A stretch of 64,000 nucleotides of DNA from Planctomycetales bacterium (GTDB lineage: Bacteria > Planctomycetota > Planctomycetia > Pirellulales > S012-138): positions 9 through 64,008 of the forward strand of contig WFOE01000240.1 of NCBI GenBank assembly GCA_015488215.1, given 5' to 3'. Below, in pieces: positions 55,850-63,623 of the stretch. The position numbers and the translations under genes were made by a program. Below the pieces are notes generated by a model. The model was not told the DNA's origin. It ran no database searches and saw only the letters and a program-made list of their open reading frames with translations. How positions within the stretch are numbered: the stretch's first letter is position 1; every line of letters starts with the position of its first letter.

Positions 55850-56773
55850 TCAGGCGAACGCTTCCCGAAGCTGCTGCATCCATTTCTTGCAGGCGGCCCG
55901 CGGATCGTCGCGTTCTTCATACTCCAACACGATGTAGCCGCGGTAGCCGGCTTGGCGCAGGATTCGGGCCAGGCGGTCGAAATCGCCCGGCACGCGTTTG
56001 CGTCCTGCGTAGGTCAGCGACACCTTCACCTGCACGTTCACGGCGTAGGGGGCCATGCGGGCCATGTCGTGGTAAGCTTCTTCCACGCTGGGGCTGCCGT
56101 GCAGGTTGCCCGTGTCCAGGTTCACGCCTAGCCAGGGGCTTTTCACGTCCCGCACCAGGGCCAGCAGCCCGTCGATCTTCGTGGTCAAACCGCCGTGATT
56201 CTCCAGAGCCAGAAACACGCCATGCTCCCCAGCGTACTGGCAACATTCTTCCATGGCCTGGACGGCCAGGCGATGGGCTTCCTGGACCGACTGGCCGTTG
56301 CGCGGCCGGCCCGAGAAAATCCGAATCACCGGTGCCCCCATCGCCGCCGCGTGGTCGATCCAGGTTTTGACCATCTGAATCTGCCGCTGGCGTTGCGGGC
56401 CGGGCGGGTAGCAAAAATCGTTGCCCACGGCCGTGCCGGAGATGTCCAGCCCCAGCGTGAAGCTCAAGAACTTCAGCCGGTTCAGGTACTCCGGCGTAAC
56501 CTGCTTGGGAAAGTAGTACGAGGTCAGCTCGGTCCCTTCCAGTTGAAGCTGGGCGCAGTACCGGATGAAATCTTCCAGGGTCCACTCGGGCCGCTTGCCG
56601 GTAAGCAAGCTGCGGAACCCATAGGCGGCCAGCGAGAACTTGAACTTGGGCTGGCCGGGCCGCTGGATAGGTTCTCGGGCGGCCAGCCGGCCGGGCAGCA
56701 TGTGCCAACTGCCGGCGGCCATTCCGGCGGCAAGACCCAGATGCAGAAAACGACGGCGACTTACGACTTTCAT
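55850..56773 (-). CDS. Tat-exported sugar phosphate isomerase/epimerase (xylose isomerase-like TIM barrel)
   Basis: Has a twin-arginine signal MKVVSRRRFLHLGLAAGMAAGS and TIM-barrel motifs (GTELTSYYF, IRIFSGRP, LALENHGG, VNLDTGN). Confidence 0.85.
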   Translation of the reverse strand: MKVVSRRRFLHLGLAAGMAAGSWHMLPGRLAAREPIQRPGQPKFKFSLAAYGFRSLLTGKRPEWTLEDFIRYCAQLQLEGTELTSYYFPKQVTPEYLNRLKFLSFTLGLDISGTAVGNDFCYPPGPQRQRQIQMVKTWIDHAAAMGAPVIRIFSGRPRNGQSVQEAHRLAVQAMEECCQYAGEHGVFLALENHGGLTTKIDGLLALVRDVKSPWLGVNLDTGNLHGSPSVEEAYHDMARMAPYAVNVQVKVSLTYAGRKRVPGDFDRLARILRQAGYRGYIVLEYEERDDPRAACKKWMQQLREAFA

Positions 56774-56909: not shown

Positions 56910-57971
56910 CTACTCCGCGGCAGGAACGGGGCAGTTGCCGGTGAAACACTCCGCGGGCACGAACGCCAGCAGCCCGGCAAGCATCAGCAGGCTGTAGGTC
57001 ACCAGTCCCGTGGCCAGTGCGATGGAAATCCAGAACAACATGGCCAGCGCGAGCATCAGACCCCGCATCGGCCGCACCCACACCAGCACCACGAACGCCA
57101 TCTGGAACAGAATGACAAAGTAGGTCCACAGGTCCATCAGCAGCGGATGATGAGCCAGCCAGTCGGCCGAAACCAGGGCCGTTTCGGGCCGGGCCACAAT
57201 CCACCACATTGCCTCGCCGGTCCACCAGACCATGCCCCCGGTTCCGCCGCCGCTGAGCTGGACCAGCACGGTCAACGCGTAGAGGACCGTCAGGTGAACC
57301 TGGATCAACCGCAATGTGACGGTGGCCCCCCAGCGTTTCGGCGGCATTGGAGCCGACGAGGGTTCCGCCGACTGCTTACGCCCAGCCAGCCAGCTATCCA
57401 CGCTCCACGCGACCCCGCAGGGCGAAAGGGCCAGATAGAACATCAGCATGGCCAGCACCGGCTCCAGTTGGGCGTTGAGCAGCGGGGCCCGATGCACGTA
57501 AGCCAGAACAACCACCAAGGCAAGCACGCTCGTCCAGCGCGTCTTCCAGCCCAGGATGAACAGCACCAGCACCAGCAGCCCGGCTGCGTGCATCAGCCAC
57601 AGTTCCCAATCGCTGCTTGCATAAGTGAGATAGGAAAGGCGATACAACGGGGGGAAGGGCCGTTGGGCCACATCGTCGAACCGGTAGAGCGTCTCACCCA
57701 GTGGAAACCGGGCGTCGAGCCACTGTCCCACCGGGTCGGCCTGGCCGGCGCCTGCCGGGGGGGCAAACCATCCTTCGGGGCCGAACCAGCGCGTCAGGTC
57801 CGGGCTGAACGAGGCGACGTAATACAGGGCGAGCAAGCCCACGGCAATCCGCAGTGCCACTAGCGGCAGGGGACTGGAAGGCTGGTACCAGAAACGGTTC
57901 CAGCCCTGACCGACCGCCAGGGACATCTGCTGAAAATAATCGGTAACGCCGCGGATGAGCAAACGAAGCAT
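56910..57971 (-). CDS. HTTM-domain polytopic membrane protein (vitamin K gamma-carboxylase-like / SdpB-like)
   Basis: LVALRIAVGLLALYY, WLMHAAGLLVLVLFILGWKTRWTSVLALVVVLAYV and LAMLMFYLALSPCGVAWSVD parallel the conserved HTTM blocks (the ...WSVD block in particular). The start is placed at ATG 57971. The ORF-track extension to 58454 overlaps the upstream gene. Confidence 0.75.
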   Translation of the reverse strand: MLRLLIRGVTDYFQQMSLAVGQGWNRFWYQPSSPLPLVALRIAVGLLALYYVASFSPDLTRWFGPEGWFAPPAGAGQADPVGQWLDARFPLGETLYRFDDVAQRPFPPLYRLSYLTYASSDWELWLMHAAGLLVLVLFILGWKTRWTSVLALVVVLAYVHRAPLLNAQLEPVLAMLMFYLALSPCGVAWSVDSWLAGRKQSAEPSSAPMPPKRWGATVTLRLIQVHLTVLYALTVLVQLSGGGTGGMVWWTGEAMWWIVARPETALVSADWLAHHPLLMDLWTYFVILFQMAFVVLVWVRPMRGLMLALAMLFWISIALATGLVTYSLLMLAGLLAFVPAECFTGNCPVPAAE

Positions 57972-57979
57972 CGTCGAGG

Positions 57980-58753
57980 TTACGGTTGGGAGTTCGCGTT
58001 GGATCCAGGACTGCCGGAGCGCGTTCCGGAAGCCCGATTGACCGGGCCGGAGCTTTCCGCCTGGCTTTCCAGTTTCAGCAGCCGCACCTGATCCCCTTCG
58101 ACCCAGATCCGCGCTTGATAGACCGTAACCCAGCGGGAATCGTGGTACGGGTCGTTCAGCGTCGGATCGTTGCTGCGTGCTTCTTCCGGGGCGCGAAGCA
58201 ACAGGCGGCGGCATTCCAGCGTGGCCCGCTGCATACCCGCTTCGCGGAGCAACCCTCGGCCCAAAGCGGCTGGCAGCACGTTTTCGGTGTCTTCGATTCC
58301 GGCCAGCCGAGCCATTTCCCAGGCGATCATCTGGTAGCGACGGTAGCGCAACCCCACTGCTCCCGGGGGCGGCCACTGCACCTGCCTGCCCTGTTCGTCG
58401 CGAAGGACGAGGAAGTGGTCCACGTCTAGCGCGTCGCCCTGGGTCAGATGCCACAGCGCGCGGCGGCTTTTGGGCAGCACCCGGGGACTGGGATACAGCT
58501 CGCCGCTAGGGAGCCGCACGATTCCCGAATCGGGGGCCACGTCCATCCCCAACAGTTGAAGATAAAAGCCGGGAAAACGCCGCAGCGCCTGCCGCATGGG
58601 GGAACTGAGTCGCCACATGGTCCAGCTCAACCCCAGGGAAAACAAGTGGGCAAACAGCAGGAAACTGACCAGCGTGCGCATCTGGGCCGAAGGGCCCGCG
58701 GGCTCCTGTCCGGCTTCCGGAGGCAACGGTTCTGCGCGTTGGGAAGACGGCAT
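57980..58753 (-). CDS. Hypothetical single-pass membrane protein (partner of the HTTM gene)
   Basis: 257 aa from ATG 58753 with one TM helix (MRTLVSFLLFAHLFSLGLSWTMW). It ends 8 nt before the HTTM start, so it is probably co-transcribed. I recognise no family. Confidence 0.6.
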   Translation of the reverse strand: MPSSQRAEPLPPEAGQEPAGPSAQMRTLVSFLLFAHLFSLGLSWTMWRLSSPMRQALRRFPGFYLQLLGMDVAPDSGIVRLPSGELYPSPRVLPKSRRALWHLTQGDALDVDHFLVLRDEQGRQVQWPPPGAVGLRYRRYQMIAWEMARLAGIEDTENVLPAALGRGLLREAGMQRATLECRRLLLRAPEEARSNDPTLNDPYHDSRWVTVYQARIWVEGDQVRLLKLESQAESSGPVNRASGTRSGSPGSNANSQP

Positions 58754-58845
58754 GGAGTAGTCACCCCCGCTGGGGAAGGAGGAACGGAACAAGTTGCCGT
58801 ACTAGTGTAGCACTTTTCTCCAGGAACGAGGTTCCGGCGGCGCAT

Positions 58846-58892
58846 GAAAAAACCGGACCCGACAACAGAAAACCATTGTCTCGCGGTCCGGT
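58846..58892 (-). terminator. Rho-independent terminator after the Cys-His repeat gene
   Basis: The minus-strand hairpin is ACCGGACC-GCGAGACAA-tggttttc-TGTTGTCG-GGTCCGGT. The outer 8-bp stem pairs 58852-58859 with 58885-58892, and there is an inner GACAA/TTGTC stem. It is followed by TTTTT(T)C. Confidence 0.8.
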
Positions 58893-58938
58893 TGGTTTCT
58901 GGAGAAAACCGGTTGCCGAAGCCTCGGCCTGTTTCCGG

Positions 58939-59391
58939 TTAGGCGGCCTTCTTTTGGGCCTTTTTGGGAGCAGCCTTCTTCTTGGGAGCCGGAGCAGCTT
59001 CCTTGGCCGCGCCATGGCAGCTACTGGCATGGCAGCTACTGGCGTGGCAACTGCTGTGGCAGCCGTGGCAGCGGCGGAACAGCCGCAGACCGTGGCACCG
59101 GCGAGCATGGCAACCGTGGCACCGACGACGGGCATGGCAGCTACTGGCATGGCAACTGCTGTGGCAGCCGTGGCAGCGGCGGAACAGCCGCAGGCCATGG
59201 CACCGGCGAGCATGGCAACCGTGGCAAGCAGCATCACCATGGCAAGCGGCAGCGCCGTGACAGGCATCGCCATGACAAGCATGGCAGCCGTGACAGTGTC
59301 CCGCTTGCACCGTTTCGGTGGTCCCTTGCACCATGGCCAGGCCGACCACGGCAACAAACGCGGCAATCCCCATCAAAAGCACTCGGTTCAT
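58939..59391 (-). CDS. Small secreted Cys-His repeat protein (20 CH dipeptides, 6 CXXCH) with a Lys/Ala/Pro tail
   Basis: ATG 59391 is preceded by GAGGAGGA 7 nt upstream. The signal peptide is MNRVLLMGIAAFVAVVGLAMVQGTTETVQA. The core is GHCHGCHACHGDACHGAAACHGDAACHGCHARRCHGLRLFRRCHGCHSSCHASSCHARRRCHGCHARRCHGLRLFRRCHGCHSSCHASSCHASSCHG and the tail is AAKEAAPAPKKKAAPKKAQKKAA. Codons are GC3-rich (TGC CAC GGC), consistent with the host. Confidence 0.7.
   Translation of the reverse strand: MNRVLLMGIAAFVAVVGLAMVQGTTETVQAGHCHGCHACHGDACHGAAACHGDAACHGCHARRCHGLRLFRRCHGCHSSCHASSCHARRRCHGCHARRCHGLRLFRRCHGCHSSCHASSCHASSCHGAAKEAAPAPKKKAAPKKAQKKAA
59022..59226 (-). repeat. 105-bp (35-aa) tandem duplication inside the Cys-His repeat gene
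   Basis: GGCAACTGCTGTGGCAGCCGTGGCAGCGGCGGAACAGCCGCAG(A/G)CC(G/A)TGGCACCGGCGAGCATGGCAACCGTGGCA occurs from 59046 and again from 59151. GCATGGCAGCTACTGGCAT flanks recur at about 59030 and 59132. Confidence 0.9.
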
Positions 59392-59514
59392 CCCAACATC
59401 CTCCTCTGTAAACTGAGGTGCCGCCAAGTTCTCTCGGGCATTCACCCCCTCGCTCGGCGGCTGGAAAAGCGCGGGGGAACGTCACTCGTACTGCACACCC
59501 AGTTGCTGGCCCGA

Positions 59515-59545
59515 GTAAGCTATCTGTCAAAATAGAATAGCTTAC
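59515..59545. promoter_or_regulatory. Perfect 9-13-9 inverted repeat in an AT-rich divergent intergenic region (candidate operator)
   Basis: GTAAGCTAT (59515-59523), a 13-nt spacer, then ATAGCTTAC (59537-59545). The spacer contains TTGACA on the minus strand (59525-59530). It lies about 125-155 nt upstream of the Cys-His gene ATG and about 310 nt upstream of the divergent DUF1614-like gene. Confidence 0.45.
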
Positions 59546-59851
59546 CAAACTGGGGTAAAGGGGAAATCTAGCGGCCAACATAACAACCGCGCAGACGATG
59601 TCAAGCAGAAAAGAGAAAATTGGGAAAGAGAGGGGGCTTTTGCGGCTCTTGGGGCGATTTTCCCCTTCGCTCAACTCTTTGGGAACCTGCCGGGACGGAG
59701 CCTCTGAGAAGCGGGGCCCCCAAACGGCTTGCCGAGTCCAAGTGCTGGTCCCGACCGGAACATTTGGCTACAACAGCAGGCGTTGGTGCGGCAGTACGAT
59801 GCCTGCCGGACCATTGGCTCCTTCGTTGAAAAGGCCACCGGAAACCCCGTC

Positions 59852-60583
59852 ATGTCGCAGCCCCCTCTTGCGCCGCGGCCCCCATTGGCCGGATGCCTGG
59901 TGCCGGCTCTGATTCTGCTGCTCCTGTGCCTGATCCCGGTTTATTTTCTGCGGTTCATCGAAACGGCCCTGGGACACCTGCACCTGACCCCCACTCAGGC
60001 GGCCCTGGCCATGTTCGGCATCCTCTTCGGCAGCCTGATTAACATCCCCGTGTACCGCATTCCCCGGGACGAGGAAGTCACCTACGTCTGGGATCCCTGG
60101 GGGCTGAGCCAGATGGTGTTTCCCCAGGTGCCGATTCGTCGCGAGACAATCATCGCGGTAAACGTGGGCGGATGCGTCATTCCGGTGCTGGTGGCCATCT
60201 GGCAGATTCGCTTCATCGTGGGGGCAGGCCCCTGGCCCGTCGCGGCACTGCTGGTAGCCATGGGAGCCAACATTGCGTTGAGCTACCGGATGGCTCGTCC
60301 CATGCCGGGAATCGGCATTGTGATGCCCGCCTGGGTGGCTCCGCTGACAGCCATCGGCACCACGTGCCTTTTGCTTTCCGAGCCGCAGTACGATGCGATA
60401 CGAGCACCGGTGGCTTTCGTCGCCGGGATTACCGGTCCGCTCGTGGGGGCCGACCTGCTCCACTTGCGCCGCGTGCTGCGGCTGCCGGTGGGTATGCTTT
60501 CCATCGGCGGGGCCGGCACACTGGACGGGATTGTGCTTTCGGGGCTGCTGGCTGCCCTGGTCTGCGGCTGGATGGCCAGCTAA
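59852..60583 (+). CDS. Polytopic membrane protein (DUF1614-like)
   Basis: 243 aa from ATG 59852 with about 6 hydrophobic helices. NVGGCVIPVLVAIWQ and GIVMPAWVAPLTAIG resemble my recollection of DUF1614. Confidence 0.55.
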   Translation: MSQPPLAPRPPLAGCLVPALILLLLCLIPVYFLRFIETALGHLHLTPTQAALAMFGILFGSLINIPVYRIPRDEEVTYVWDPWGLSQMVFPQVPIRRETIIAVNVGGCVIPVLVAIWQIRFIVGAGPWPVAALLVAMGANIALSYRMARPMPGIGIVMPAWVAPLTAIGTTCLLLSEPQYDAIRAPVAFVAGITGPLVGADLLHLRRVLRLPVGMLSIGGAGTLDGIVLSGLLAALVCGWMAS

Positions 60584-60917
60584 GCGGGGTGGGTTTGCTT
60601 GCGGCCCTGGCCACATCTCAGGACGCCGTGGCCCTCCACAGGAAAATGTGCTGGTCGGGCTTGGCACGGGCTGCTGATTCGGTACATGCCGTCGATGGAC
60701 ACAAGCTGTTGAGACGGATTCCGCCGTCAGACGGCCATGCTGCTGAAATGGATTTTCAACAAGGCTCAGTTGCCCCAATGTTGACCAAATGAAGCGGTTG
60801 GGTTGAGTATAAAAAATCCGCTTTTTTCCCTGGTTTTGAGCAATTTTTCTCTTGCAATCTTGCCCGAATCGAGAAAAAAAGAAAATGCCAGGGGTTCTAA
60901 CAGAGGAGGTCGCAGCG

Positions 60918-63623
60918 ATGAATCGCACCAGCCAGGGGTTCTTCTCTTCGTTACTGCGCTTCTTATGCAAAAAGAATAGCCCGGCCGCTGGTTCGTTGCA
61001 GATCGAGGCATTGGAAGGACGCCTGATGCTTGACGTCGGGCTGTTCCCCTCTCTGGATCAAAACACGCTGGAGCAGACAATCCAGCAACTGCCCGACCAG
61101 CCGGTACCGGACGATCCCGCGCCAGGATTGGGCTTGGGACAGTTTCGGGCGCTTTCGGCAAGCAGTCCTGGCACCTGGTCTGGGACCAGTTCGGGACAGG
61201 GCAGCTCGAGCCAGGATTCGTTGCACGACCACGATGACTTCGACGACGATGACGACCACACGGACGTCTATAACGTCAACGTGCCGGTGACCAACAATCC
61301 GGTCGGCCCGTTGAACACGTACCTGGTGTCCACCGATGACCCGGGCAGGCTCACGTTGAGCAACGGCGTGGTGGTCGATTACGACGATTCGGACATTCTG
61401 GCCCTGGTGGTGGACAGCCGAGGCCAGTTGGTCAACGCAGGCATTTACTTCGACGGCAGCGACGTCGGGCTGACCACCGGCAAGGAAGACATCAAAGGAT
61501 TTACCCTGGACGACCAGGGGAATATTTACATCACGCTCAAGGGCAAGGGACTCGTCAACACGCCCCAAGGCAATCTGGTCGTCGGCGCCAACGACATTCT
61601 CAAGTTCACGCCCACTTCGCTGGGAACCACTACGGTCGGCACCTGGGACTGGTACTTCGACGGTAGCGACGTCGGGCTGTTCGGCAGCGACGAGCGGATC
61701 AGCGGCCTGAGCTTCCTTTCCAACGGCGACTTGCTCCTGACGCTACACGAACGCGGCAACGTACCGGGACTGGGGAGCGTCCAGGCCGGCGACGTGCTCC
61801 GCTTCCGCTTTACTACCCAAGGGTTCGGCACCACCGCCGGAACCTGGAGCCAGTGGTTGAGCGGTGCCACGCTGGGGCTGACCGGGCATGATCCCGAAAT
61901 GAGTGCCCTTTGGGTTTCCGCCGACGGGAACCGCGTCGGCTTTTCGGCCGAAGACGACTACCGCCACGGCAACTGGCGCGCTCAGGACGAAGACCTGCTG
62001 CTGTACAACCGCTCCACCGGAGCGGTTTCGGTGTTGCTGAACACCACGCGGCTGGGACTGGGCCACCAGGACGTCGACGGCCTCCATATCCTCAGCGGCG
62101 ACGCTTTGGCTGCCCTGGGCAACACGGGCAGCGGGGGTTCGACCGGAACAGGAAGCGGCAGTGGCAGCGGCAGCGGATCAGGAAGCGGCAGCGGCTCCGG
62201 CGGGGGTACCGGCAGTGGAAGCGGCTCGGGCAGCGGCAATTCCAACACGCCCACGCCCAACGGACCGCTGACGACTTACCTGCTTTCCACCGACGATCCT
62301 GGTGCCCTCCGGCTGCCGGACGGTTCCGTGTTCACTTACGACGATTCGGACATCATCGCCCTGGTGGTGGACAGCACCGGCCAGTTAATTTCGGCCGGGA
62401 TGTATTTCGACGGCAGCGACGTCGGGCTGACTACCAACAACGAAGACATCAAAGCCTTTGCCTTGGACGCCCAGGGGAACATCTACATCACGCTCAAAGG
62501 CAAGGGACTGGTCAACACGCCCCAGGGCAACCTGGTCGTCGGCGTCAACGACATTCTGAAGTTCACGCCCACTTCGCTGGGAACCACTACGGCCGGCACT
62601 TGGGACTGGTTCTTCGACGGCAGCGACGTGGGCCTGTTCGGCAGCGACGAGCGGATCGAGGGCCTGAGCTTCCTGCCCAACGGCGACCTGCTCCTCTCGA
62701 TCCACGAGCGGGGCAACGTACCCGGGGTGGGCAGCGTCCAGGCCGGCGACCTGTTGCAGTTCCACTTCACCACCCAGGGCTTCGGCACCACGGCCGGAAC
62801 TTGGTCGCGGTGGCTCGGCGCCTCGACGCTGGGGTTTGGTCCCTCGGAAGCTGAGCTAAACGCGCTGTGGATTTCCGGCGACGCTAACCGGGTGGCCTTC
62901 TCGGCCGACGACGACTATCGCCACGGCGGCTGGCGGGCCCAGGACGAAGACCTGCTGATGTACAACCGCTCCACCGGAGCCGTTTCCGTGTTGTTGAACA
63001 CCACGGCCATGGGCATGCGGAGCCAGGATGTGGATGGACTGCACATCCTCAGCGGCGACGCCTTGGCCGGCATCGGCAACAGCAGTGGTAGCGGAGGGAC
63101 CAGCAAAGCCTTGTGGTTATTCGCCGCCCGAAGCCTCGATCCTGCCGGCAAGCAGACGGATCGGGAAGTGCCGGATCCCCGCGATCCCGACCTCCGTTCT
63201 TCGGCCGACGACCTGCTGCCGCAGATCGACGACGGCCTGCTGGATGACCACCCCACCCAGCAGACCAGTCCGTTAACCGGCATGTTGGACGACCAGCACC
63301 CAACCAGCAGCGACCTGCTGCCGCAGATCGACGACAGTCTGCTGGATGACCACCCCACCCAGCAGACAAACAACCTGGCCGACGATAGGGACGGCCAGCA
63401 CACTTGGGCACCAGACGATCAGCCGAGCGGAGAGCACACCTCTCTCTTCGACGACGACCAGCAGACGCATTCTTCTCATCCGTCTGGTGACGATTCCCTG
63501 TGGCGAACCGACGACGATTCGCTTCGCCGTTTGGGGCAAGCCACGGACGATGTGTTGGCCGGCATCGGTGAGCTGGATTATTACGAAATCCTGGCCCGGC
63601 GCATCTCCGCCCAGTTGCGTTGA
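60918..63623 (+). CDS. Large secreted repeat protein (two 319-aa propeller-like units, a (GS)n linker, an acidic D/Q-rich tail)
   Basis: GAGGAGG lies 8 nt upstream of ATG 60918. The N-terminus is MNRTSQGFFSSLLRFLCKKNSPAAGSLQIEALEGRLMLDV. The FDGSDVGL motif recurs four times. Near-identical halves start at GPLNTYLVSTDDPG and GPLTTYLLSTDDPG. The C-terminal DLLPQIDD(G/S)LLDDHPTQQT occurs twice. Confidence 0.85.
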   Translation: MNRTSQGFFSSLLRFLCKKNSPAAGSLQIEALEGRLMLDVGLFPSLDQNTLEQTIQQLPDQPVPDDPAPGLGLGQFRALSASSPGTWSGTSSGQGSSSQDSLHDHDDFDDDDDHTDVYNVNVPVTNNPVGPLNTYLVSTDDPGRLTLSNGVVVDYDDSDILALVVDSRGQLVNAGIYFDGSDVGLTTGKEDIKGFTLDDQGNIYITLKGKGLVNTPQGNLVVGANDILKFTPTSLGTTTVGTWDWYFDGSDVGLFGSDERISGLSFLSNGDLLLTLHERGNVPGLGSVQAGDVLRFRFTTQGFGTTAGTWSQWLSGATLGLTGHDPEMSALWVSADGNRVGFSAEDDYRHGNWRAQDEDLLLYNRSTGAVSVLLNTTRLGLGHQDVDGLHILSGDALAALGNTGSGGSTGTGSGSGSGSGSGSGSGSGGGTGSGSGSGSGNSNTPTPNGPLTTYLLSTDDPGALRLPDGSVFTYDDSDIIALVVDSTGQLISAGMYFDGSDVGLTTNNEDIKAFALDAQGNIYITLKGKGLVNTPQGNLVVGVNDILKFTPTSLGTTTAGTWDWFFDGSDVGLFGSDERIEGLSFLPNGDLLLSIHERGNVPGVGSVQAGDLLQFHFTTQGFGTTAGTWSRWLGASTLGFGPSEAELNALWISGDANRVAFSADDDYRHGGWRAQDEDLLMYNRSTGAVSVLLNTTAMGMRSQDVDGLHILSGDALAGIGNSSGSGGTSKALWLFAARSLDPAGKQTDREVPDPRDPDLRSSADDLLPQIDDGLLDDHPTQQTSPLTGMLDDQHPTSSDLLPQIDDSLLDDHPTQQTNNLADDRDGQHTWAPDDQPSGEHTSLFDDDQQTHSSHPSGDDSLWRTDDDSLRRLGQATDDVLAGIGELDYYEILARRISAQLR
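61305..63077 (+). repeat. 957-bp internal tandem duplication (about 90% nt identity by eye) including a (GGC/AGC)n Gly-Ser microsatellite at about 62121-62238
   Basis: Unit 1 starts at 61305 and unit 2 at 62262, a period of 957 nt or 319 codons. Long identical runs include ATCACGCTCAA.GGCAAGGGACT.GTCAACACGCCCCA.GGCAA.CTGGTCGTCGGCG.CAACGACATTCT.AAGTTCACGCCCACTTCGCTGGGAACCACTACGG. Confidence 0.9.

Follow-up and report, generated by a model that had tools for sequence, protein, structure and literature searches.

Little is known of what HTTM/GGCX-like proteins do in bacteria; the cases on record are the carboxylation of malonomycin by MloH and the requirement, defined by genetics, for SdpB in maturation of the SDP toxin. 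GGCX is the human vitamin-K-dependent gamma-carboxylase and acts on secretory proteins. In GGCX, Lys218 is the catalytic base, held by Trp223 and lying next to Asp263 (PMC12647623). In Bacillus, SdpA and SdpB are needed to process the secreted protein SdpC (PMC6818787), and HTTM proteins also occur in clusters for linaridins, which are peptides made on ribosomes and modified after translation (RiPPs) (PMC9927463). Pairs of an HTTM protein and a DUF5819 protein, the latter consisting of a transmembrane (TM) helix and a domain, are predicted to mimic the whole of GGCX, and an AlphaFold 3 model places the DUF5819 accessory domain where the lumenal domain of GGCX is (bioRxiv 10.64898/2026.08.19.745780). 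The locus analysed here lies in a stretch of 64,000 nucleotides (the window) of contig WFOE01000240.1 (GenBank assembly GCA_015488215.1) from a Planctomycetales bacterium that GTDB places in the Pirellulales, and it comprises three minus-strand genes: gene A, for a short exported protein built of Cys-His dipeptides, gene B, for a protein with a single TM helix, and gene C, for a polytopic HTTM-type membrane protein. We propose that the product of gene A is an exported, disordered, thiol/imidazole-rich client of an SdpAB/GGCX-like module formed by B and C and is also a metal binder, a joint reading to which we give a probability of about 0.5. The client relationship, argued from analogy with the systems above, is the somewhat favoured part of it, and metal binding as the end function of protein A is put forward tentatively. 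Handling of secreted proteins linked to HTTM proteins is already known; the type of client is unprecedented, and the literature searched gave no description of the A-B-C module in Planctomycetes or of either of the two client families described below. A candidate client encoded next door in most loci, with a conserved N-terminus and simple repeats, makes the question of HTTM clients directly testable.

Structural modelling and sequence profiles place protein C in the GGCX/HTTM fold. Among 103 homologues of this protein the distant ones carry the HTTM domain (PF05090), and the AlphaFold2 (AF2) model, built from an alignment of 62 sequences, has a predicted local distance difference test (pLDDT) value of 89.5. 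With this protein as query, human GGCX gave the only meaningful PDB matches in Foldseek (15 entries, probability 1.0), with query-normalised TM-scores of 0.53-0.58 against its transmembrane domain, and the protein C profile matched GGCX at E 2.6e-10. The match to SdpB (TIGR04033 in NCBIfam) is weak (E 8.1e-4; it scores 19 bits where the cut-off lies at 178), and the relatedness of C to SdpB goes through the shared HTTM fold only. For protein B, a profile search against representatives of 50%-identity clusters returned 401 relatives at E<=1e-3, and its TM helix contains a near-invariant His. No Pfam match was found in 41 members of this family, the profile had no match among PDB sequences, the AF2 model is poor (pLDDT 62) and found no PDB structure with Foldseek, and the 150 strongest of the 401 matches showed no bridge to a named family. 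Protein B of the window and five B proteins from other loci also lacked any match to the SdpA family in NCBIfam. Because Pfam, the PDB profile and Foldseek gave no match, the link of protein B to DUF5819 or SdpA is one of architectural analogy only.

GGCX with its Gla proteins, sdpABC and the DUF5819-HTTM pairs come closest to the module, which resembles each of them in part. As in the GGCX/Gla system, a polytopic HTTM-fold protein would act beside proteins that bear a signal peptide, on the non-cytoplasmic side of the membrane; unlike GGCX, protein C has no lumenal domain, for which the separate bitopic protein B may stand in, and protein A has almost no Glu and lacks the propeptide plus Glu-rich region of GGCX substrates. 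The Bacillus subtilis sdpABC and yitPOM operons likewise combine three genes, for a signal-peptide protein, for a small accessory protein and for a membrane protein of HTTM-like type, but in A-B-C the gene for the client comes first, B is unlike SdpA, and a low-complexity Cys/His protein replaces SdpC, a globular pro-toxin with a hydrophobic C-terminal peptide. An immunity operon like sdpRI is also missing, with no such immunity or regulator genes among the called neighbours in 10 contexts. The DUF5819-HTTM pairs share with B-C an N-terminal TM helix followed by a domain of about 160-190 residues encoded beside an HTTM protein; they differ in that B matches neither DUF5819 nor any other Pfam family among its 41 members, in that a DCC1-like thiol-disulfide oxidoreductase domain is part of those pairs and absent from A-B-C, and in that descriptions of those pairs include no secreted client of low complexity.

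Analysis of the genomic context indicates that the arrangement A-B-C, with gene A directly upstream of B, is conserved across orders. The same order is found in two distant metagenome-assembled genomes (MAGs; loci L002 and L004) that have other flanking genes, and homology there extends to E 5e-64 for C and to E 1e-11 for B (the gene at the same position in L002). Of 185,579 species genomes scanned, 393 encode a relative of protein C, and the best 80 of these loci, which were used for the context analysis, all belong to Planctomycetota (Pirellulales, Planctomycetales and Isosphaerales); A-B-C order persists across these three orders while the flanking genes change. By strict criteria, a gene for a secreted low-complexity protein stands upstream of B-C in 50 of the 78 distinct loci with enough upstream DNA, and this protein is Cys-rich in 30 loci and Gly/Ser-rich in 20. 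About 12 more Gly/Ser-rich proteins with extra domains were recognised by eye in this slot. The Gly/Ser type, which takes the first position in the more distant operons, has a signal peptide, GSSGG spacers, repeated GG(F/L)(M/L/F)SKHK or GGLFSKHH units and many His and Lys; GGSSGGSY at the end, or a TIGR03000 planctomycete domain at the C-terminus, is frequent. Examples are L036, L039, L041, L042, L047, L053, L058, L068, L074, L085 and L087, in which the gene lies about 0.7-1.9 kb upstream of C, and forms intermediate between the Cys-rich and Gly/Ser-rich types occur in L018, L035 and L078. What stays constant in the first gene is export, low complexity, a motif of GGLF plus basic residues and dense His and/or Cys, whereas haem motifs do not belong to this set. 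Gene A encodes the Cys/His form that a family of secreted low-complexity proteins, found throughout Planctomycetota, takes at this locus.

The product of gene A begins with MNR, an 18-residue hydrophobic run and TETVQA followed by GH, and from this order we infer cleavage between VQA and GH, which would give a mature chain of about 120 residues. The 95-residue core holds 20 Cys and 21 His, and each of the 20 Cys is followed by His, with a spacing of 3-9 between CH dipeptides; in 100,000 shuffles of this core the maximum was 12 such dipeptides, and 20 were reached in none. Cys and His together make up 27% of the protein. The motif CXXCH is present wherever CH dipeptides stand one residue apart, which amounts to six occurrences with overlaps (positions 33, 36, 56, 73, 91 and 108) and five without. 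The mature protein contains 21 Lys plus Arg against 3 Asp plus Glu (2 Asp, 1 Glu), for a net charge of about +18, and its C-terminal tail is GAAKEAAPAPKKKAAPKKAQKKAA. The window protein lacks CC pairs and has just 3 Pro. Protein A is predicted to be disordered and strongly cationic. The two tandem copies in the gene, compared over 96 nt each, differ at three positions, all of them synonymous. The original prediction, made from the DNA letters, had described a 150-codon minus-strand reading frame with a ribosome-binding site (RBS) 7 nt from the ATG, a signal-peptide-like N-terminus with a VQA-G site, a CH periodicity, six CXXCH motifs, a Lys-rich tail, a recent repeat duplication at the DNA level (recovered as a 105-bp period with 96% matches) and no resemblance to a named family. 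All of these features were found again in our analysis, the count of six with the overlaps just given. The reading as a real gene for an exported mini-protein stood, and its suggestion of a metal sponge or of a cationic Cys-rich peptide is plausible, but the prediction had missed the HTTM cluster, the Gly/Ser counterparts and the antisense calls of the public pipelines.

To place protein A among its relatives, we searched a database of 5.8 billion proteins, in which the window protein itself is absent, and obtained seven homologues of 128-186 residues with E values from 1e-20 to 1e-4. About 35 further homologues were read from loci fetched through the neighbouring membrane protein and from a metagenome scan, which with a narrower alignment gave seven loci. 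All are from Planctomycetota, mostly from Pirellulales-like MAGs, with cultured Bremerella among them, namely Bremerella cremea JCM 17758 with locus L023 on contig NZ_BAABFZ010000005.1 at about 1,495,400-1,497,800 and Bremerella sp. JC770 with locus L026. Searches with protein A and 10 relatives returned no Pfam or NCBIfam match and no significant match among PDB sequences. The family N-terminus reads MNRxLxxGIAIFFAVVGIALxGGExxAxAGHGC(H)GC, in which M1, N2, R3, A30, G31, C33 and C36 are invariant, and the signal region is 42-61% identical to that of the window in loci where protein C is just 35-43% identical. The core is hypervariable and Cys-rich, with repeats such as RCHGR, RDRCSG, CCAPEPT, CCQPS and TCAPATCEPA; in the alignment Cys is conserved and His is not. 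Many relatives carry a cationic motif of the GGLFARLRARR type, represented in the window by GLRLFRR, which occurs twice. The tails are Pro/Ala-rich or Lys-rich (the latter also in L008, L090, L091, L093 and P0001) and often end in (F/Y)RxVSF(R/V)R, an ending that the sub-clade of the window does not have.

The strict Cys-His composition is confined to part of this family. The fraction of Cys with His next is 1.00 in the window, L090, L091, L093 and L094, about 0.5 in L008 and P0001 and 0-0.3 in most of the remaining relatives, and the number of His ranges from 0 to 29. The five CH-only proteins keep 6-9 CXXCH motifs, and the count is zero in 12 of 29 family proteins, which include L008 of the window's own sub-clade and two proteins with 20-21 Cys and no His. 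Repeat number also varies among orthologues, and L094 equals L090 plus two CHRARG units in otherwise near-identical genes; since repeat numbers differ between near-identical genes, the core evolves by expansion and contraction of its repeats. Two metagenomic relatives illustrate the range of compositions: L100 (3001-3624, plus strand) has 35 Cys, no His, (TCAPATCEPA)n repeats and PGLFARLRAK twice, and L099 (137-664, plus strand) has GCGGC/GCHGC repeats and eight CXXCH. Both keep the MNR signal region, which shows, as far as these sequences go, that core composition drifts freely. In another relative (L013, 3383-3832, plus strand) we noted a sub-threshold match to PF12669, the FeoB-associated Cys-rich membrane protein family (E 9e-4, 19.9 bits against a cut-off of 27), that spans the hydrophobic N-terminus and GCHGC. 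The N-terminal helix of the family might be an uncleaved anchor instead of a cleaved signal.

Comparison of close orthologues, located through their neighbouring genes (L090, L091 and L093), shows that gene A is real and under purifying selection. In codons 1-46 the window differs from L091 by 15 synonymous and no non-synonymous changes, the comparison with L093 gave 17 synonymous and 2 non-synonymous differences, and a 26-codon CH-rich block differs between orthologues by 4-9 synonymous and no non-synonymous changes. The idea that there is no gene here, and that the Cys-His frame only accompanies a true gene read differently, for example in antisense at 58876-59535 (plus strand), draws on several alternative frames that are also open in GC-rich copies and on the calls of public gene callers. 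Over the mini-gene these place antisense reading frames rich in Ala, Val and Met, one of 173 residues in the public record of the window's own sequence (L088, 2437-2958, minus strand) and one of 182 residues in L091 (2978-3526, minus strand), both equivalent to the frame at 58876-59535; they leave the corresponding stretch of L090 (3188-4240) without any call and have the mini-gene correct in L093 only. However, the frame of gene A is the sole frame open throughout all 25 loci tested, the antisense frame being broken in five of them (L002, L015, L033, L037 and L038); in addition the orthologue substitutions are synonymous in the sense frame, the conserved promoter, RBS and terminator described below all serve the sense strand, and homologues are detectable at the protein level with E 1e-20. 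We regard the absence of a gene as having a negligible probability. The original prediction had named conservation of a different frame in relatives as an outcome that would speak against it, and the comparison came out for the Cys-His frame. Because the public pipelines called the antisense frame, the window protein is missing from the protein database, and since the gene is missed or miscalled by standard pipelines, the family is under-represented in protein databases. The sequence is striking, with 20 of 20 Cys followed by His and five CH-only proteins under purifying selection.

The regulatory signals around gene A are also conserved. Its promoter is the lone sigma-70-like match in 3 kb, and both hexamers are unchanged in five related loci, one of which has a protein C just 62% identical; the position of the transcription start site is taken from the -10 box and is accordingly a prediction. 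Within the leader lie a 9-bp stem that is invariant, GCCGCCGAG/CUUGGCGGC, and, over the RBS, a CCUC...GAGG hairpin by which the RBS could be masked. The leader could be a cis-regulatory RNA, a suggestion without covariation support as the sequences are too few and too similar, and neither it nor the whole window has an Rfam match. For the terminator-like hairpin just past the stop codon z is -3.2, with an equally good fold in none of 200 shuffles, and its stem and T-run are kept in four orthologues while the loop varies; a consensus terminator scan did not report it on the minus strand. The TGCTACACT box ahead of gene B is invariant or nearly so in four orthologues and suggests that B-C may have a promoter of their own. 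We also considered an in-frame PETGRGFGNRFS after the stop codon of gene A as a relic of the (F/Y)RxVSFRR ending and rejected it: it overlaps a small hairpin, is not shared by the closest orthologues and is probably due to chance.

Table 1. Features of the A-B-C locus and its surroundings in the window (positions counted from the first nucleotide of the window).
Feature	Position	Strand	Description
Gene A	58939..59391	minus	150-aa Cys-His-rich exported protein, stop codon included; ATG at 59391, TAA at 58941-58939
Promoter-like site of gene A	59577..59604	minus	TTGACA-16 nt-TATGTT with TG extension; sigma-70-like; ~185 nt 5' of gene A
5' leader of gene A	59392..59570	minus	~180 nt; conserved in alignment of 4-5 orthologues; possibly structured
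Shine-Dalgarno GAGGAGGA	59399..59406	minus	7-nt spacer to gene A ATG; read from sequence; kept in orthologues
Signal peptide, protein A aa 1-30	59302..59391	minus	MNR, hydrophobic core, TVQA before G; sequence features only
Mature Cys-His core, protein A aa 31-126	59014..59301	minus	20 CH dipeptides, GLRLFRR x2, GHCHGCH N-terminus
Tandem duplication in gene A	59026..59226	.	105 bp (35 codons), 1.9 copies, 96% identical (Tandem Repeats Finder)
C-terminal tail, protein A aa 127-150	58942..59013	minus	Lys/Ala/Pro-rich by composition
Terminator-like hairpin	58846..58899	minus	Intrinsic-terminator-like hairpin and U-run just past gene A stop; fold -40.1 kcal/mol
TGCTACACT box	58804..58812	minus	Resembles extended -10; ~40 nt past gene A terminator, ahead of gene B; (near-)invariant in 4 orthologues
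Gene B	57980..58753	minus	257 aa; one N-terminal TM helix and ~190-aa domain; no known family
Gene C	56910..57971	minus	353-aa polytopic HTTM-fold membrane protein; starts 9 nt past B stop
Neighbour D	55850..56773	minus	Xylose-isomerase-like TIM-barrel (AP_endonuc_2); next gene after C, 51-65% identity, in at least 14 independent Cys-type loci

Taken as a client of B-C, protein A is probably a partner or substrate of a GGCX-related machine and not a haem protein. After Sec export it would be a dedicated client, either substrate or bound partner, of B-C at the outer face of the cytoplasmic membrane. Recognition may go through the conserved N-terminal region together with motifs of the G-L-(F/L)-x-R-L-R-x-R-R type, which the two GLRLFRR copies would represent, and the hairpin after gene A and the separate TGCTACACT box before gene B would provide an excess of client over machinery. 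The client reading is favoured by a signal peptide and mature N-terminus that are conserved beyond the needs of export alone. More weakly, mature protein A could form a thiolate/imidazole ligand array of high capacity for transition metals in the periplasm or envelope, and its poly-Lys tail could tether it to anionic envelope components; every version of the family is dense in Cys and/or His, in agreement with metal binding. If protein A does bind metals, it would be an exported analogue of the cytoplasmic Cys/His metal stores.

The catalytic residues of protein C bear on what B-C might do. The equivalent of GGCX Trp223 is invariant in the protein C family, and K/E stands at those of Lys218 and Asp263 in 67 of 85 related operons. 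The window clade has Q/Q for this pair, and several further Cys-type operons have A/T, Q/L or M/x. The Lys is kept in all 32 Gly/Ser-type operons. The Asn159-His160 pair of GGCX has no identity match in the protein C profile alignment, as read by eye. We also looked for an association between a protein C that has lost the Lys and a protein A of all-CH composition, and outside the window clade there was none. With the Lys/acid pair gone from C and hardly any Glu or Asp in A, the window clade cannot perform canonical carboxylation, and Gln at both positions likewise means that C does not perform the canonical deprotonation of vitamin K hydroquinone. Protein C could act as a scaffold or with a different chemistry. 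In its boldest form, which we consider unlikely, A-B-C would be a bacterial counterpart of the GGCX/Gla system, that is, a quinone-dependent HTTM machine of two polypeptides that modifies exported disordered clients, with the Cys-His protein as a modified periplasmic metal-binding polymer and the Lys/acid pair rewired to Gln/Gln. If this were true, the clients would be rich in Gly, Ser, His and Lys in most Planctomycetota and Cys-rich in Pirellulales-like lineages, and protein A of the window would be a previously unknown kind of modified polymer.

Several observations count against a client of B-C that binds metals. The positions of Lys218 and Asp263 are occupied by Gln238 and Gln290 in the window protein C, and the Lys is lost in 13 of 33 Cys-type operons, so that protein C may be a non-catalytic scaffold in those lineages. 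Known GGCX and MloH chemistries are not applicable, since protein A has almost no Glu or Asp, and the Cys-free Gly/Ser proteins in the same slot imply that Cys chemistry is not what B-C needs. The interaction of A with B and C is deduced from gene order alone, and in the window clade gene A has its own promoter and terminator. Protein B matches no family, DUF5819 and SdpA included, its model is poor, and its topology is uncertain; in the window copy the TM helix is followed by four Arg. Metal-homeostasis genes were not consistently nearby in the gene contexts examined, and oxidation of the exported Cys to disulfides could abolish metal binding by thiolates.

Proteins with a comparable composition are known from other settings. 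Helicobacter Hpn and Hpn-like, the C-terminal tail of SlyD and the metallothioneins resemble protein A in their dense Cys and His, low complexity and probable disorder, and protein A shares with metallothioneins the arrangement of Cys and His in short clusters (20 Cys and 21 His in 95 residues). Those proteins are cytoplasmic, whereas protein A has a signal peptide, and it has no sequence-family match to them in Pfam or NCBIfam; to our knowledge, the strict Cys-His dipeptide periodicity is not a described feature of any of them. Bufferins and other exported Cys-containing RiPPs, which bind copper and are modified by multinuclear non-haem iron oxidases (MNIO), are similar to protein A in having a Sec signal, Cys, membrane or modification partners and a conserved N-terminus with a variable core, but the A locus has no MNIO (DUF692) or DUF2063 partner, and the core of protein A is about 100 residues long and repetitive. 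On the features tested, it falls outside the cytochrome c family, the metallothionein families and the strict Sdp family, and the catalytic residues of protein C are not those of a GGCX-type carboxylase.

The most literal alternative, raised by the original prediction, is an ultra-dense multihaem c-type cytochrome in which the six CXXCH motifs would bind haem after Sec export and other His would serve as axial ligands. Multihaem c-type cytochromes do share with protein A a signal peptide and several CXXCH, the five CH-only relatives retain these motifs, short CXXCH peptides can serve as substrates of cytochrome c maturation systems, and phmmer gave weak PDB matches over the TM-plus-CXXC region (a small cytochrome c at E 0.02 and NrfH at E 0.41). 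As haem attachment sites, however, the motifs proved not to be conserved. They are missing from the 12 of 29 family members noted above, the His-free proteins with 20-21 Cys among them, and because the family members have anything between 0 and 29 His and frequently lack CXXCH, the function of the family is not haem attachment. CXXCH also arises automatically when CH dipeptides stand one residue apart. At one site per 16 residues a fold that encloses haem would have no room, known dense cytochromes having about 23-30 residues per haem, and no cytochrome model in Pfam or NCBIfam was matched by protein A and 10 relatives. Moreover, the conserved partners are the HTTM module and not haem lyases, no maturation genes are linked to gene A, and a Cys-free Gly/Ser protein fills the same operon slot elsewhere. 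Protein A is very probably not a c-type cytochrome, and this alternative retains only a very small probability. A stand-alone periplasmic buffer or sponge for metals, similar to metallothionein and beside B-C through synteny without a functional link, would agree with the Cys+His content, with Cys/His density as the sole compositional constant across family versions, with the separate promoter and terminator of gene A and with the apparent catalytic degeneration of C in the window clade. It leaves unexplained why the A-B-C order is kept across three orders with changing flanks and why the signal peptide and mature N-terminus are conserved more than export demands; Pfam scans found no metallothionein family, and no genes for metal transport or regulation lie nearby, so we hold it to be rather unlikely.

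The parallel with sdpABC, where the trio also consists of a signal-peptide protein, a small accessory partner and a membrane protein of HTTM-like type, raises the possibility that protein A gives rise to cationic peptides that are secreted for antimicrobial action or cannibalism. B-C would then mature it in the way SdpAB matures SdpC, and the repeats would be set free as several peptides. Its leader-like conserved N-terminus beside a hypervariable repetitive core, its strong positive charge, the HTTM proteins of linaridin clusters and the hairpin 3' of the gene, an arrangement typical of precursor/enzyme operons, all point in this direction. Yet no immunity, ABC-exporter or protease gene is conserved beside the cluster, B has no SdpA match, the match of C to SdpB lies far below the family cut-off, and a module whose C relatives occur in 393 genomes fits a housekeeping role in the envelope better than a niche toxin; we judge such a precursor improbable. 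A similarly low probability applies to a structural envelope protein cross-linked by disulfides or metal bridges and resembling keratin-associated proteins in composition, which would form part of the planctomycete envelope, itself rich in protein. Relatives with CCQPS, CCAPEPT and CCAPA repeats and Pro/Ala-rich tails fit such a role, as does the wide distribution of the module in the phylum, and older chemical analyses, attributed to Liesack and colleagues (1986), reportedly found planctomycete envelopes to be rich in cystine and proline. Protein A of the window, with its 3 Pro and no CC pairs, and the Gly/Ser-type counterparts without Cys do not fit it, and Pfam scans detected no YTV domain or other wall-protein domain.

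Among the neighbouring genes, D, which follows gene C, is far better conserved than A, B or C. Its sequence looks like that of a generic sugar-phosphate isomerase/epimerase, and whether it is part of the A-B-C system is uncertain. We considered it as an MNIO enzyme acting on Cys and rejected this, since it has no DUF692 match and, among Cys-type loci whose downstream DNA is long enough, is missing from about half. On the other side, a gene for a DUF1614 membrane protein (59729-60583, plus strand) is divergent from gene A and holds this position in the five closest loci (L008, L088, L090, L091 and L093) and not in more distant ones. Further along, a reading frame of 923 residues (60852-63623, plus strand) has no significant family match; in it a long (GS)n/(GT)n linker connects two copies of a module of several hundred residues, and an acidic repetitive tail comes after them.

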